Assembly (NCBI GenBank): GCA_965213865.1
Contig: OZ243928.1
Coordinates: 2,825,003 to 2,889,002, forward strand
Direction of reading: 5' to 3'
Length of the DNA: 64,000 nucleotides
Origin: Arenicellales bacterium
Lineage (GTDB): Bacteria; Pseudomonadota; Gammaproteobacteria; Arenicellales; JAJDZL01
The position numbers and the translations under genes are program-made. The first letter of the stretch is position 1. Each line of letters begins with the position of its first letter. This document shows, one piece after another, positions 3,026 to 28,749 of the stretch. The notes under the pieces are model-generated. The model was not told the origin of the DNA. It searched no databases and saw only the letters and a list, made by a program, of their open reading frames with translations.

Positions 3026-4537
3026 TCAATTGTTTTCTTCGGTGAATTCGGCGTAGTGCTTGCCAAACAGTTGGCGGTGCCTCACAATGTTCATGGCAAT
3101 CGTAATCAGCCCCAGTGAAATCAGGATGCCGCTGATCGGCTTGGTAAAAAATGCAAAGACATTGTAGTCCAGCAGCACCATTGATCGGGAAAACGTATCT
3201 TCTCCAATCTGGCCGAGAATCACACCCATCACCAAGGCAGGTATCGAGTAGTCGCCCTTGCGCATCAAGAATCCCAGCACACCGGCCGCAAACATGGTAT
3301 AGACATCCACAATGTTGCCACGCAACGCGAACGCGCCGATGGTTGCAAATATCAATATCGTTGGCGCCAGGATCGGAAACGGAATGCGCAGCAGATTGAC
3401 AATGCCTTTGGCCTCGACAACACCGACCGCTAAAATGGCCACTGATGCCCAGAACATCGATGCGAAAAGCACCCACACAAGATCATGCGCCTCGATCATG
3501 ATCAAAGGACCGACATCCATATCATGCAAATTGAAAACACTGATCATCATGGCAGTCAGCGCGCCGCCTGGCAAACCCAGCGCGAGCAGCGGAATCATCG
3601 CTGCACCCGTGGCAGCATTATTGGCGGTTTCCGGGGCAACCACGCCCTCGGGATTGCCCTTGCCAAACTTTTCAGGCGTTTTGGACCAGCGCACGGCTTC
3701 GTTGTATGACATAAACGCCGCCAGCGTGGCGCCGATGCCCGGGAGCACACCGCAGAAAAAACCAATTACGGCAGAGCGCACGACTATGAATTTCATTTTC
3801 CAGAATTCGAAAAATGTGGGGTAAGCCACCGAAATCTTTGGCCTGTCATATTCTCCGCGGGCTAGTTTGAGTCCTTGGGTAAAAACTTCGGCAACTGCAA
3901 AAAAACCAAGAATCAGCGGCACGAAATGAAAACCGCCGTGCAGATACAGCGTGCCGAAATTAAATCGGGGAATACCGCCGACGGGATCGCTGCCAATTGA
4001 GCCGATCAGCAGTCCAGCCAGCAGGGACAGCCAGCCTTTCGCGATGGATTGAGTGCCAATGCCAGCGACAACCGCCAAGCCGAAAAAAATTAGAGCAAAT
4101 ATTTCGACCGGGCCAAAGTTGCGAATCGCAAAATCCGCGACTGGACCGGTAAACGCCATCATGGCAATGGCAGCGCAAGTGCCGCCAAATGCCGAGCACG
4201 TTACGGCATATCCGATTGCCTTGCCGGATTGACCTTTGCGGGTCATCGCATAGCCATCGAAAGCAGTCGGGGCATTCTCCACGGACCCAGGAATATTGAA
4301 CAGGATCGCCGTGATCGCGCCGCCATATACGCCCGCCACATAAAGCACTCCATAAAGCATGATAGCGTGCGTTGACGACATCCAAGCGGTAAATGGCAGC
4401 AGGACTGCAGCCAAAGTCAGCAGACTGAGGCCTGGAACCGCGCCAAAAACCAGTCCGCCGATCAGTGCGGCGATAAAAATGACAATGCCAATTGGATCGG
4501 TAAACAGCTGCTGCGTACCGACGAGGAATTCTCCCAT
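3026..4537 (-). CDS. tctA: Tripartite tricarboxylate transporter, large permease TctA
   Basis: ~500-aa polytopic membrane protein (MGEFLVGTQQLFTDPIGIVIFIAALIGG...) in the tctCBA position. The start is placed at ATG 4537, which overlaps the tctB stop (TAATG). The 54 upstream codons of ORF 3026..4699 lie inside tctB. Confidence 0.9.
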   Translation of the reverse strand: MGEFLVGTQQLFTDPIGIVIFIAALIGGLVFGAVPGLSLLTLAAVLLPFTAWMSSTHAIMLYGVLYVAGVYGGAITAILFNIPGSVENAPTAFDGYAMTRKGQSGKAIGYAVTCSAFGGTCAAIAMMAFTGPVADFAIRNFGPVEIFALIFFGLAVVAGIGTQSIAKGWLSLLAGLLIGSIGSDPVGGIPRFNFGTLYLHGGFHFVPLILGFFAVAEVFTQGLKLARGEYDRPKISVAYPTFFEFWKMKFIVVRSAVIGFFCGVLPGIGATLAAFMSYNEAVRWSKTPEKFGKGNPEGVVAPETANNAATGAAMIPLLALGLPGGALTAMMISVFNLHDMDVGPLIMIEAHDLVWVLFASMFWASVAILAVGVVEAKGIVNLLRIPFPILAPTILIFATIGAFALRGNIVDVYTMFAAGVLGFLMRKGDYSIPALVMGVILGQIGEDTFSRSMVLLDYNVFAFFTKPISGILISLGLITIAMNIVRHRQLFGKHYAEFTEENN

Positions 4538-5165: not shown

Positions 5166-6194
5166 TTACAGGCCGTCGCGAACTTCAAGGCCTAATTCTT
5201 TCGAGGCGCTGGCGTAAACTCCCAGTGAATCTTCAAGAATCTTGATCGTATCCTCACGGCTGCGGAATGAGTCAACGATGTCAAGGCTTTTACGTACGAC
5301 AAACTCCTGATGCTCTTCTGATCGATAGGCTTGCGCGAAGACTTCCGCCAGATACTCAATAATTTCTTGCGGCGCGCCTTTCTTGATGAACATTCCTCGG
5401 AAGCGCAGCAGCGGATCCCAATCTAAACCATAGTCTTGCCCCAATGCCGGCGTATCCGGAAAGTTTTCAAAGCGCGTTGGCCAAAGCGCCAGTATCGGCT
5501 TGAGCGACCCGCCTTCAACGAACTTCGATACGTCCCCCGGCTGTTCCATCAGCAGATCCAGCTGTCCGCCGACGACGGCGCCGAAACGCTCGCCTGATTT
5601 GCCAGTCAGCACTTGCCTTGACTTGAATCCGAAGTGATTCTCAACCACGGCCATGCTGATCAGCTCAAGCGGAATATTAATATTTGACACGGTCAGCTTG
5701 CCTTCTTCCTGCTGCGCATAGGCAACGAGCTTGTCCCAATCCGGCACACCATCGGTCTGAAACCGCTGGTCCTCAGCATTGATGAACAGCATTGTCGGTG
5801 CGACATTCATAATCACCAGCGGCTCCAGGTCGGTCACTGGATTCAAATCGATGCGGCCTTCGACATAACGGGACGCAACAGTATCGATATGCTGCAGCAG
5901 CGTATAGCCGTCAGCCGGCGCTTGCAGAAATTCCGGCAAGCAGTTGAGTCCTCCACCACCGACAATGTTGATTTTATTAATCTTTGCATTCATAATTTTA
6001 GCGGCAGGCCCGGCAATGGCATCCACTGCCTGATCGGAACCGCCCCCTTTTCCGTAGCAGCAAATGACGGTGATAGGACGGTTTGGATAGCCGTCAGGTC
6101 CAGCCGCACTGGCTGGCAGTGACGCTAGCATCCCAATGCCGGCAACTGCCAAGCCGCAGACAGAAGTCAAAACTTTTCCTAAATAAGATTTCAT
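5166..6194 (-). CDS. tctC: Tripartite tricarboxylate transporter substrate-binding protein TctC (Bug family)
   Basis: 342 aa with a signal peptide (MKSYLGKVLTSVCGLAVAGIGMLASLPASA) and a Bug/TctC-like body ('GYPNRPITVICCYGKGGGSDQ'). It is the first gene of tctCBA. Confidence 0.85.
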   Translation of the reverse strand: MKSYLGKVLTSVCGLAVAGIGMLASLPASAAGPDGYPNRPITVICCYGKGGGSDQAVDAIAGPAAKIMNAKINKINIVGGGGLNCLPEFLQAPADGYTLLQHIDTVASRYVEGRIDLNPVTDLEPLVIMNVAPTMLFINAEDQRFQTDGVPDWDKLVAYAQQEEGKLTVSNINIPLELISMAVVENHFGFKSRQVLTGKSGERFGAVVGGQLDLLMEQPGDVSKFVEGGSLKPILALWPTRFENFPDTPALGQDYGLDWDPLLRFRGMFIKKGAPQEIIEYLAEVFAQAYRSEEHQEFVVRKSLDIVDSFRSREDTIKILEDSLGVYASASKELGLEVRDGL

Positions 6195-6288
6195 ATTGGC
6201 ATTACTCCATAGTTTGAATCGAATACTTGCCGGCTCCTGCGGTCAGTTCCCAAGGCCGGCAAGTTATCTCAGCTGCGATTTATAACCG

Positions 6289-6318
6289 AAATTCAGTTTT
6301 GAATTGAAAAATTCAGTT
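6289..6318 (-). promoter_or_regulatory. Direct repeats in the tctC upstream region (candidate response-regulator site)
   Basis: AAATTCAGTT occurs at 6289-6298 and 6309-6318 (perfect copies in 20-bp register), 95-125 nt upstream of the tctC ATG (6194). A 10-bp-stem hairpin (ACTTGCCGGC 6225-6234 / GCCGGCAAGT 6255-6264) lies between the repeats and the start codon. Confidence 0.3.
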
Positions 6319-6479
6319 CATTTTTGCATACCAATGCGGCATCACTCGTGCAGCCTCGACAGAATTCGATCGATCTTGGCCGCAGCGCCTGCCCGCGGAC
6401 TTCTATCAAACTTGACTCTTGCACCGCGAGGCGAGAGACTCTGCATGACTGTCAACCGACAAAGTTTGCCCGCTAGCAA

Positions 6480-17408: not shown

Positions 17409-17944
17409 TTATTCGATCGGGATGACAATGGATCGGGCCGGCTCGTACATGATGATAGAGAGATGATGGCCTGAACCCACATCCTCGCCGCGACCAGTAC
17501 TGATCAGCAGATTCACTTCATTCAGCACCTGTCCAGGAAACACCCCATGTTCAGCAAGCAACCCCGCATTGCAGAATTCCGCACGGCCTTTCTCTGTCCA
17601 CCCGCTGCCCAAATTTACTCCGGCGCCCCCCACATAATCCCCATCGCATCGATTATCAGTGTTCAAACTCTGATCGCATGGACTTCCATCCCAGACAACG
17701 GCGCAAACCTCCAGAGGCGGATTGGTGATCGCGCAATCGGAGGGCAGTTGGAATCTGATGATGACTTGGTCATTGGGACTGAATCTACTCGGATTCCCAA
17801 TTGCTGGCCAGGCCTTGGTAATCTTGACATCACTGAGTGTGCACCGGGCCTCTGCCGTTCCGGCGGCCAGAGTCAAAGCCGCCAGCACAAAGGCGATCAG
17901 CGCTGTTAATTGTCGGGGGGGGAGGAGATAAGTAAAGTGCGCAT
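17409..17944 (-). CDS. Small six-Cys secreted protein, 5' end interrupted at a C8 tract (frameshifted / phase-OFF as sequenced)
   Basis: ORF track 17409..17888 has a GTG start and a truncated signal peptide. The ATG at 17944 opens MRTLLISSPPDN*, stopping at 17906-17908. Adding one C to the C8 tract gives MRTLLISSPPPRQLTALIAFVLAALTLAAGTAEA|RCTLSD..., continuous with the 159-codon ORF (178 aa in total). No family recognised. Confidence 0.55.
17915..17922 (-). repeat. Homopolymeric tract, C8 on the coding (minus) strand
   Basis: GGGGGGGG at 17915-17922 on the plus strand, between the ATG (17944) and the signal-peptide core of the gene above. Confidence 0.95.
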
Positions 17945-26942: not shown

Positions 26943-27182
26943 TCGAATCGCACTCAGAAATATTCCGCAAGCAGTCGATCTCTGGGGGATCAGCTTTGTC
27001 ATTTGCACGACGCTTGGACTTTGTTTGACAGATTGCAGGAACCACAGCGGCACCTATATCGGCAGCTGCAAATGATCCATTATATTGATCGAAGGCAATG
27101 GCCCAGTTTGAAAATCATCCCATTCTGCGGGCTGGAATTGGTATACTTTACCGGAAGTGTATTCAACTTTGGCAGAGCAAAA

Positions 27183-27894
27183 ATGAAGCATTCAGCAAAA
27201 TTCAATTCACCCCCCCCCTCCTCATCATAAGCGGCTGACGGCCCTCGCCGCGGCACTGCTGGCGCTGCCTGCGGCTGCGCAGGTGGACTGGTCGATTGTG
27301 GGTGGGACAGGACCCGGTTTCTGCACCGGGGGCAAGACTGAGATGCAAGCCACCCTTTTTACCGTAACGAGCACTCCCGATAAAAACAGCATAGGATTGG
27401 GCACGTCGGCGCTTACATCCAATCAGGTCAGAGGCTTTATCGGCGGCGGCAGTTTTTCAAAGGTCGCTCTGAGAGTGCTGGAAAGCGAGACGAACCGGGA
27501 GGTTCGCAGCATAAACCTCGGAGAAGTCAATTTTCCCTCCCCCAGCATAGCGGCGAAGACCCACAACATTGCCGGCCTCAAGCAGAACCGGGCCTATGTC
27601 ACCGTTCTTTCTGCCGGGAATCCGGACCCCAAAAACCGGACTTTCGCGAGGCTGTGCTTCCGCACGGCGGCCGATCTGGAGATCCCCCTTGGCTCGGGTC
27701 GCGGCGACGCCGGTCCCGGCGATTCGTTTTCGAGCGGGTGCTACGCCTTCAGCAAGGACCCGAATCAGATCCGGGCCTGCTTTTGCGGAGCCCGGAACTC
27801 GTCAGGCAGCTGGGCGCGCACGGATGCCGAAGACGGCTACGAGTATATGCTGGGCGCCGCCTGGAGACAAAACGTGGGCTGCACGACGAACTGA
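27183..27894 (+). CDS. Six-Cys secreted protein, 5' end interrupted at a C9 tract (frameshifted / phase-OFF as sequenced)
   Basis: ORF track 27283..27894 has a GTG start and no signal peptide. The ATG at 27183 opens MKHSAKFNSPPPSSS*, stopping at 27228-27230. Removing one C from the C9 tract gives MKHSAKFNSPPPPHHKRLTALAAALLALPAAAQVDWSIVGG..., continuous with the 203-codon ORF (236 aa in total). No family recognised. Confidence 0.55.
27210..27218 (+). repeat. Homopolymeric tract, C9 on the coding (plus) strand
   Basis: CCCCCCCCC at 27210-27218, between the ATG (27183) and the signal-peptide core of the gene above. Confidence 0.95.
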
Positions 27895-27980
27895 CGGCGC
27901 TGCGGGCGATTGCCGTCAGGCGGCTTTCGGCCGGCGGCGGCATCTGCCGGACTGGCTGAGGCAGACCGGCAGCCTGATGA

Positions 27981-28008
27981 CCGGAGGCGGCCTGCGGGCC
28001 GCCTCCGG
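27981..28008. terminator. GC-rich hairpin between convergent genes
   Basis: CCGGAGGCGGCC (27981-27992), TGCG, GGCCGCCTCCGG (27997-28008): a perfect 12-bp stem with a 4-nt loop. It lies between stop 27894 (+) and stop 28063 (-). No adjacent U-tract. Confidence 0.45.
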
Positions 28009-28062
28009 TCCGGCAGTTTCAGGCTGAGGCGCTGCCTGATCGAGCATGTGCGCCGCATCGGT

Positions 28063-28749
28063 TCAGCCAATCCCTACAATTGGCAGCAGCTCCCGCAAAT
28101 TCTTGATTTCAGCCTGCGGAATTCTCGGAAGACGATCAAGCGGCTGCTCGAATCGATTGCACCAGGCAACTTGATAGCCAAAGTTTGCGCCGCCTATAGC
28201 ATCCCAGCAGTTAGACGATTGAAAACTGATCTGGAAAGGCTTGATTCCAAACAAGTCACAGGGTATCTGATAAACGGTGCTGGCGGGCTTGTAGATTTTT
28301 TTCTCGTCAGCCGACAGGCACGCGTCGAGATGCTCGGCAATGCCCGTATAACGGACCACCGACTCCAGCATCGCAGGTGAGCCATTGGACAAGACAGCAG
28401 TTTTGATGCCGTGCGCCCGCAACGCCTTCAGCACCTCAATGACCTCTTCGTAGCAGCTTAGACGCAGATAGGCATTCATCAGATCATCCCGAAGCTCCGC
28501 ATCCTGGATGCCACACGAAGCCAGTGAATAATCCAGTGCGTTCTGCGTGACTGTCCAAAAATCCTCATAGACATTCATCAGACTGAGCAGCCACGTGTAT
28601 TGCAGTTGCTTGGCGCGCCATAACTCAGAGACCGCACTCTCATGCTCGCCCAGTCGGCCGGTGTGCGCTGCGGCGGCGGAGTGCACGTCAAACAATGTTC
28701 CGTATGCATCAAACACGCAGACACGAATATCTTTAAAAAGAGCTGGCAT
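28063..28749 (-). CDS. HAD-superfamily hydrolase, (S)-2-haloacid dehalogenase type
   Basis: 'IRVCVFDAYGTLFDVHS' carries the nucleophile-Asp motif DxYGTLxD of L-2-haloacid dehalogenases. Also 'AVLSNGSPAMLES' and 'KKIYKPASTVYQ'. Confidence 0.85.
   Translation of the reverse strand: MPALFKDIRVCVFDAYGTLFDVHSAAAAHTGRLGEHESAVSELWRAKQLQYTWLLSLMNVYEDFWTVTQNALDYSLASCGIQDAELRDDLMNAYLRLSCYEEVIEVLKALRAHGIKTAVLSNGSPAMLESVVRYTGIAEHLDACLSADEKKIYKPASTVYQIPCDLFGIKPFQISFQSSNCWDAIGGANFGYQVAWCNRFEQPLDRLPRIPQAEIKNLRELLPIVGIG

Follow-up and report, generated by a model that had tools for sequence, protein, structure and literature searches.

The gene at positions 27183-27894 of a 64,000-nucleotide stretch of an Arenicellales bacterium genome (contig OZ243928.1, positions 2,825,003 to 2,889,002 of the forward strand; the whole stretch is called the window below) has a run of nine cytosines between its start codon and an out-of-frame signal peptide. 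It is probably a contingency (phase-variable) gene that forms the cargo of a small, non-autonomous transposable cassette. An original prediction made from the window alone had put forward a phase-variable secreted protein in the OFF state, and the comparison of gene copies described here lends strong support to that candidate. The evidence comprises the anatomy of the locus, polymorphism in tract length, frame statistics, intact open reading frames (ORFs), terminal inverted repeats (TIRs) with target-site duplications (TSDs), and a predicted fold; what we infer from it concerns the rate of switching, export, mobilisation in trans and the selective agent.

In the proposed mechanism, replication slippage would alter the C run by at least one base. 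With a tract of C8 or C11, translation from the ATG at 27183 would yield a precursor of 236 or 237 amino acids, which would be exported by the Sec pathway, cleaved after A32 and folded with disulfide bonds into a secreted or envelope protein. With the sequenced tract of C9, translation would end after 15 codons and the gene would be OFF. Each copy would switch independently, such that a population would show changing subsets of variants to its host, to phages or to its neighbours.

The candidate switch at the window locus

The reading of the locus given in the original prediction held in nearly every particular. The ATG at 27183-27185 opens a frame, MKHSAKFNSPPPSSS, that ends at a TAA (27228-27230) after 15 codons; this start codon and dead-end ORF of the OFF state occupy 27183..27230 (all features of the locus are on the plus strand unless otherwise noted). 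Within it, at 27210..27218 and with an A and a T on its two sides, lies the C9 homopolymer, a candidate slipped-strand switch from both the sequence and the family comparison. The +1 frame is open from the TGA at 27184-27186 to the TGA at 27892-27894, reads ...PPPPHHKRLTALAAALLALPAAAQVDWSIVGG... and encodes PPPPHHKRLTALAAALLALPAAAQVDWS..., and its first ATG, GTG or TTG codon is the GTG at 27283. Shortening the tract to C8 restores the frame and gives the 236 amino acids that had been stated, and C11 gives 237. The +1 frame specifies a predicted signal peptide, KRLTALAAALLALPAAA (27229..27279), with a predicted signal peptidase I cut after A32 and before QVDWS, as judged by hydropathy and alignment, followed by the mature protein (27280..27894), whose 204 codons and stop are intact and out of frame with the ATG. 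The six cysteines that had been counted in the mature part are present.

Base composition alone does not make a run of eight or more C improbable here. Dinucleotide shuffles gave a mean of 0.67 matches, and the three observed were reached in 6 of 100 shuffles, so that the significance of the tract rests on its position and on comparison. Only two G/C runs of eight or more occur in the 64-kb window, each of them between a start codon and a signal peptide.

Tract length and reading frame across the family

Thirty loci with a conserved start (the window and 29 genome loci) share a common layout, in which a Shine-Dalgarno (SD) sequence is followed by the ATG, one to nine codons, the poly-C tract and the signal peptide. 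The window's own paralogues are the proteins P0001, P0011 and P0023, and this DNA-level comparison leaves aside the other two copies in that genome. A check of tract lengths in orthologues, suggested with the original prediction, found a homopolymer at the same position in all 30 loci, with lengths from C7 to C29. The mature ORF occurs in each of the three possible frames relative to the ATG: three copies are in frame, or ON (L003 with C13, L014 with C19 and L038 with C10), 16 need a shift of -1 and 11 a shift of +1. The 27 OFF copies have no in-frame start upstream of the tract, and 26 of them have an uninterrupted mature ORF of 197-214 codons.

Closely related copies differ at the tract. L054 (C13, ON, on a contig with a coverage of just 2x) and L055 (C12, OFF) represent one syntenic locus in two samples, with flanks that are 100% identical. 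Within one chromosome, L008 and L009 form a duplicate of 2.78 kb with 99.5% identity, in which the sole gaps are 6 nucleotides that distinguish C23 from C29; these exact lengths are uncertain, since the related assemblies were made from PacBio HiFi reads with metaMDBG and long homopolymers are the main error class of such data. Of 12 pairs of loci whose flanks show 90% identity or more, 8 differ in tract length. Among 45 G/C runs of eight or more in 331 kb of locus DNA, about 30 are the 5'-end tracts of family genes, and several of the remainder belong to second copies within one locus. Judging from these sequences, the tract mutates faster than the DNA that surrounds it.

Homopolymer indels being what long reads most often get wrong, and related metagenome-assembled genomes (MAGs) having been built from such reads, the true tract might be C8 (or C11) and the gene an ordinary, intact one. 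An independent assembly of another sample (L053, ERZ25070844, 99x coverage) argues otherwise. It matches the window locus over 6597 nucleotides with 4 single-nucleotide polymorphisms and no indel and also has C9, which indicates that C9 is the real majority state. The family-wide mixture of three frames, moreover, is not what rare sequencing errors or a uniform homopolymer bias would produce. We regard a miscall as extremely improbable.

The same mixture does not fit a programmed frameshift of fixed direction, which would keep one frame relation. This bears on recoding as the main route to expression, in which slippage of RNA polymerase or of the ribosome on the CCC run would yield some product from templates that look OFF and would thereby tune expression. 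Long homopolymers would permit realignment without mismatches, and the excess of out-of-frame states would matter less if low-level rescue occurred. Tract length varies between otherwise identical DNA copies, however, so that change at the DNA level is certain, and in Neisseria and Campylobacter clean ON/OFF phenotypes result from G/C tracts of this size. It is very unlikely that recoding is the main route, and phase variation by slipped-strand change of the tract remains the preferred reading.

The mobile cassette

The gene lies in a cassette of 943 bp (27094-28036) that coincides with a GC-rich island and has the cargo gene as its only gene, with no transposase inside. The original prediction had called the gene GC-richer than its neighbours, and its GC content is indeed 0.59-0.68 over 27200-28200, compared with 0.537 for the whole window; this is explained by the position of the gene on a mobile cassette. 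The TIRs are 20 bp long, with the family consensus GGTAGTGTCTCAGTTTGAAA and the paired cassette-end motif GGTAGTGYCTCAGTTTGAAA. At the window locus the 5' TIR, GGCAATGGCCCAGTTTGAAA (27094..27113), departs from the consensus at 4 positions, and no plus-strand match in the 64 kb is better, while the 3' TIR (28017..28036, minus strand; TTTCAGGCTGAGGCGCTGCC on the plus strand) has 5 mismatches to the reverse-complement consensus and is the best minus-strand match. Directly outside them lie the left TSD, TGATCGAA (27086..27093), and the right TSD, TGATCGAG (28037..28044), which agree at 7 of 8 positions.

In most copies of the family the TIR motif is found 70-80 nucleotides upstream of the ATG, and its reverse complement 60-600 nucleotides downstream of the stop. 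Both TIRs could be located at 24 loci, where the TSD is a perfect 8/8 match in eight (for example GAGATATT in L012 and CAATGGGT in L022) and a 7/8 match in four more; an 8/8 match is expected by chance at about 1.5e-5 per locus. No gene recurred consistently beside the cassettes, which therefore lack a dedicated secretion or partner gene.

Elements that have the 20-mer of the TIR at both ends, with 0-1 mismatch and with perfect 8-bp duplications, occur on an Acidiphilium plasmid (2.6 kb; NZ_CP041717; L063 4001-6634) and on a Hoeflea plasmid (4.2 kb; NZ_CP011481; L062 6001-10224). Each of these elements carries one single-ORF transposase of the IS1 insertion sequence (IS) family (PF03400) plus other cargo. 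A TIR that starts with GGnnnTG and an 8-bp duplication are features that we take to be those of the IS1 family. IS3, IS6 and IS1595 transposases near plasmid TIR matches were considered as the parent and rejected, no second TIR having been found near them; the IS3 case alone had IS ends of its own, and both TIRs with the duplication bound IS1-family elements only. From their sequence, the elements in the MAGs, whose hosts appear to live in sponges (see below), are best described as mobile insertion cassettes (MICs) with IS1-family-type ends.

On such a cassette the coding sequence would come with a promoter region, a ribosome-binding site and an ATG of its own, with a poly-C tract and a Sec-type signal peptide, and with a terminator hairpin; an IS1-family transposase would presumably move the cassette in trans. 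Movement in trans would explain why a genome has 2 to 11 or more copies and why the family is present in gammaproteobacterial and alphaproteobacterial MAGs.

Some further features of the ends and of the plasmid elements were noted. All five departures of the window's 3' TIR (28017-28036) from the consensus are A-to-G, and the cassette is GC-rich in comparison to its host, which suggests a GC-rich donor, or GC-biased mutation or repair acting on the element. The other cargo of the L062 and L063 elements consists of a helix-turn-helix (HTH)/Peptidase_M78 regulator and hypothetical proteins. Single copies of the TIR are also found in Bradyrhizobium, Mesorhizobium, Methylocystis and other plasmids.

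The encoded protein

In the C8-repaired protein, the N-terminus has K16-R17 followed by a hydrophobic core of 15 residues, L18-A32, with a peak Kyte-Doolittle value of 2.48 in the hydropathy profile. A-A-A precedes Q33, the A-x-A/QVDWS junction is conserved in the family alignment, and there is no lipobox cysteine. This is the standard layout of a predicted Sec-type signal peptide.

The mature domain had been said to belong to no recognisable family. That stands as far as domain databases are concerned, scans of the repaired protein against Pfam and NCBIfam having given no match (for Pfam, none at E <=1), but not for the predicted structure, which has a fold like that of fibronectin type III (FN3) domains. 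AlphaFold2 with 63 aligned sequences gave a model with a pLDDT of 87.9 and a pTM of 0.82; in the first run, with 42 sequences, the C-terminal domain had a pLDDT <50, which the deeper alignment raised. Two parts can be distinguished. The first, at mature residues ~20-130 (27337..27669), is a variable, FN3-like beta-sandwich predicted at pLDDT >90. The second (27655..27891) is a conserved, Cys-rich C-terminal module with the pattern CFRT...CGARN...GCTTN, the cysteines of which are invariant across the family alignment. Foldseek gave FN3 domains and monobodies as the top PDB matches (E ~1e-4, target-normalised TM-scores of 0.55-0.66), and found no structural match to the Cys-rich domain even with the model from the deeper alignment, which makes it an orphan fold.

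Sequence profiles point in the same direction. A profile search of PDB sequences gave only marginal matches, to ephrin-receptor FN3 domains (E = 0.075 and 0.43); the family profile matches giant proteins made of Pfam fn3 repeats, such as P0086; and the relative P0069 scores 24.9 bits with Pfam fn3 (PF00041), for which the gathering cut-off is 25. The domain is best called FN3-like on the strength of the model, rather than a member of PF00041. We picture the product as a secreted or envelope binding protein that would have a diversifying FN3-like face. Its last five residues, G-C-T-T-N, are near-invariant in family alignments A1 and A4, and could be a sorting or anchoring signal.

A second gene of the same design

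The other long G/C run of the window belongs to a gene on the minus strand (17409..17944). Its ATG at 17944 opens with MRTLLISS and is followed by a C8 tract (G8 on the plus strand, 17915-17922) and the out-of-frame signal peptide RQLTALIAFVLAALTLAAGTAEA. A stop follows the tract, which leaves the gene OFF, and a tract of C9 would bring the frame back. The mature domain of 146 amino acids is Cys-rich, is unrelated to the FN3-like family and had no match in a Pfam scan. Fourteen homologues of this second family were found, in which 3-8 prolines follow the start or the call begins at an internal Met codon. At L057-L059 the tracts are C11, C13 and C25, and these genes sit in cassettes of 747-777 bp with the same TIRs, two of the three having perfect 8-bp duplications. 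Around the window copy at 17409-17944, no TIRs were recognisable at up to 6 mismatches.

Distribution and selection

Relatives of the repaired protein are rare. There are 49 among 5.8 billion clustered proteins, often several on one chromosome-sized contig, and none of these has a Pfam domain; an exhaustive profile search of 1.84 billion representatives gave 120 clusters only. A scan of species-representative genomes located 52 loci, with up to 11 per chromosome. The hosts are MAGs of two classes, namely gammaproteobacteria of the Arenicellales (Ca. Poriferihabitaceae) and Pseudomonadales (Ca. Azotimanducus), and alphaproteobacteria of the Paracoccaceae (Aestuariivita) together with one unclassified alphaproteobacterium. 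Ca. Poriferihabitaceae MAGs have been described from the sponge Phakellia ventilabrum, assembled from PacBio HiFi reads with metaMDBG (PMC12859430), and names and accession series suggest that all of the hosts are sponge-associated. Joint Genome Institute (JGI) metagenomes, scanned with a protein pattern and with a DNA pattern, returned no relatives. Searches of viral contigs and plasmids likewise gave no relatives of the gene, which leaves a phage or plasmid vehicle for the gene itself unsupported.

Annotation practice tends to conceal the family. Homologues that were fully called have poly-proline directly after the start, as in MTRFTPPPPPPLAKLA and MKQYRNSPPPPPPLAKLA, and for most others the call starts at a Met within the signal peptide (MAQVDWS... 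being one example). Automated calls start at an internal Met or Val in nearly all members; P0001 is thus 183 amino acids long, compared with 236 for the repaired protein. As a result, database entries lack the signal peptide and the family looks cytoplasmic. This is a warning for the annotation of MAGs generally, where gene calls from internal Met codons hide both signal peptide and family.

At the DNA level the gene appears to be a mosaic, in which the 5' module is shared, the middle hypervariable and the 3' module homogenised. Its last 245 nucleotides (27655-27900) show ~85-92% identity to many copies in other orders, and 89.8% to L005, from another class, while the middle of the gene, which encodes the variable domain, resembles L001 alone (80%). 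The variable domain has a median synonymous divergence (dS) of 1.35, and the C-terminal module one of 0.34. Such a structure fits recombination or gene conversion among copies. Median ratios of nonsynonymous to synonymous divergence (dN/dS; Nei-Gojobori, all intact copies) are ~0.43 for the C-terminal module and ~0.66 for the variable domain, with pairs of OFF copies giving similar values; for the C-terminal module of the window copy compared with L003, L005 and L015, the ratio is 0.17-0.23.

Several observations weigh against an adaptive switch on a mobile cassette. The evidence for switching comes from a comparison of assembled copies, not from reads within one population, and at the window locus both assemblies have C9, with no length variation seen there. 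The L054 ON allele has low coverage, and the lengths of C23 and C29 are uncertain. ON copies, at 3 of 30, are below the one third expected of a neutral walk (P ~0.003), and to account for this deficit one must further assume that OFF is selected in the majority population or that some decay has taken place. Decayed copies are many, with at least 19 further loci fragmentary or internally frameshifted; the dN/dS ratios are only moderately below 1. The window copy, with its degenerate TIRs and with a -10 box (TATACT) and SD sequence (GGCAGAG) that are weaker than those of its paralogues, may be an ageing one. Finally, the PF03400 transposase within identical TIRs was seen in the Acidiphilium and Hoeflea plasmids, and a cognate transposase in the sponge MAGs is presumed.

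Much of this could be expected if the genes were no more than the decaying cargo of a selfish cassette, with most copies dead or dying, the poly-C a mutational weak spot or the code for a poly-proline linker, and no adaptive switching. The 27 out-of-frame copies of 30, the fragments and internally frameshifted loci, the degenerate signals of the window copy, and dN/dS ratios of 0.4-0.7, which are not far under 1, all speak for this. Random decay, however, would spread stops and indels throughout the gene, whereas the mature ORF runs on without interruption in all but one of the out-of-frame copies, and it is always the tract that carries the lesion. The dN/dS ratio is below 1 also between pairs of OFF copies (median 0.46 in the C-terminal module). 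Tracts stay long, up to C29, whereas an unselected tract would be expected to erode, and a second, unrelated cargo family has the same design. Decay without adaptive switching is in our judgement unlikely, and a phase-variable gene on a mobile cassette continues to be the interpretation that we favour.

Relation to known systems

By analogy, the mechanism would be that of the classic switches in which a repeat lies in the leader region; in its logic it comes nearest to Neisseria Opa and to 5' homopolymer switches. The Opa genes are present in multiple copies with CTCTT repeats in the region encoding the leader peptide, where slipped-strand mispairing shifts the frame; the loci behave independently and form a recombining mosaic (PMC3960869). 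The present family is similar in being a multi-copy envelope or secreted family with a repeat in the leader region, in having each locus on its own switch, and in its mosaic of variable and conserved parts. It differs from Opa in that the repeat is a homopolymer and not a pentamer, the protein is FN3-like and Cys-rich and not a beta-barrel, the copies are transposable cassettes, and the hosts are invertebrate-associated MAGs of two classes and not a human pathogen. The analogy is one of mechanism only; with no Pfam or NCBIfam match and an FN3-like fold, there is no homology to Opa (PF02462) or PilC.

The pilC gene of Neisseria has a G tract in its signal-peptide region, and Campylobacter and Haemophilus have genes with poly-G/C tracts. 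Homopolymers at the 5' end have been discussed as a general device, and the poly-A tract of Listeria inlA raises mutation frequency ~1000-fold (PMC2831843). The genes described here resemble all of these in having a homopolymer near the start codon that allows reversible inactivation by frameshift. In contrast to those single chromosomal genes of cultured pathogens, the switch in this case is on a mobile module, with two cargo families and in two classes.

MICs such as MIC231 of Bacillus cereus have the TIRs of an IS around passenger genes, with the transposase supplied in trans (PMC6542083). The sponge cassettes are like MICs, and like IS1-family elements with passengers, in their TIRs, TSDs, multiple copies and lack of an internal transposase, and are unlike them in having as cargo a self-contained gene for a phase-variable secreted protein. 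No described MIC or miniature inverted-repeat transposable element (MITE) with such cargo was found in the literature.

FN3-type domains in secreted proteins are a recognised signature of sponge-associated bacteria (for example PMC11706023, PMC6506613). The present family is like the eukaryotic-like proteins of sponge symbionts (ankyrin, tetratricopeptide repeat, leucine-rich repeat, fibronectin type III) in having an FN3-type domain in a secreted protein, and differs from them in that theirs are recognised by Pfam fn3 and related models, while this family escapes Pfam and adds an orphan Cys-rich domain. No tie to phase variation or to cassettes was found in the portions available on sponge-symbiont FN3 proteins, and a wider look at the literature turned up nothing that describes the protein family, the TIR sequence or phase variation among the symbionts of sponges.

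Homopolymer phase variation is textbook knowledge, and almost all examples come from cultured animal pathogens. In this case, the same logic is met in MAGs of uncultured symbionts that apparently live in sponges, where the family is multi-copy, with 2 to 11 or more loci per chromosome. What appears to be new is the protein family, its plug-in transposable packaging (two cargo families, two proteobacterial classes) and the symbiotic setting. There is an even chance that bacteria of different classes in sponges draw on one pool of IS1-derived mini-cassettes. Each would be a complete contingency gene, with a promoter, a poly-C switch, a signal peptide and a hypervariable secreted domain, FN3-like or of another Cys-rich kind; transposition and horizontal transfer would spread the cassettes, recombination would shuffle their variable and conserved modules, and slippage would switch each copy on its own. 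If so, mutualists of an animal without adaptive immunity would have a variable surface or secretome in the style of Neisseria, directed at host recognition, phagocytosis or phages. Confirmation would give a testable handle on how symbionts vary what they display to phages or to a host with innate immunity only, and would provide a case of a mobile element that carries a contingency gene in ready-made form.

Upstream region, terminator and variant arrangements

A comparison of upstream 16-mers across loci identified an SD-like GGCAGAG at 27171..27177 of the window, where the paralogues have the stronger GGAGAG. A putative -10 box, TATACT (27142..27147), is suggested by the position of the conserved TATAAT in paralogues; a scan with the sigma-70 consensus did not call it and found no -35 hexamer at the right spacing. 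Given the lack of such a hexamer, an activator or an unusual promoter may drive the cassette genes. In many copies the 5' TIR region (27104-27147 in the window, and its counterparts in the paralogues) has GTTTGAAA twice, ~30 nucleotides apart, the second copy appearing as GGTTGAAAC directly before TATAAT. The conserved upstream motif was considered as a promoter or regulator site and rejected, its spacing fitting no sigma-70 -35/-10 pair; the motif is the TIR.

Downstream of the gene, the original prediction had pointed to a GC hairpin of 12 bp. The hairpin is real, and its stem proved to be a perfect 14 bp (27979..28010; stem 27979-27992/27997-28010; predicted -35 kcal/mol). It is likely to be a terminator that travels with the cassette, similar GC hairpins being found in other copies just inside the 3' repeat.

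Two Paracoccaceae loci of OZ244066, L011 (~2865-2874) and L023 (~2902-2910), have an ordinary signal peptide and no tract in the ORF. They have instead a C10 or C9 run between TTGAAT and TACAGT, ~70 nucleotides upstream of the ATG, giving a spacer of 19 or 18 nucleotides, which looks like a promoter-spacer switch of the opc/fim type within the same family.

Inside the 2.78-kb duplicate of L008 and L009 (OZ244914), a direct repeat of ~220 bp, roughly 90% identical (2406-2623 and 3919-4139), brackets the cassette. Second cassettes adjoin the first in some genomes (L001 3988-4886; L022 ~5567-6386; L010 96-987). That of L010 represents a divergent subfamily, which has a C-terminal CxCxGTRxG-type motif instead of CGARN and is carried in the same cassette, with a C11 tract in the OFF state.

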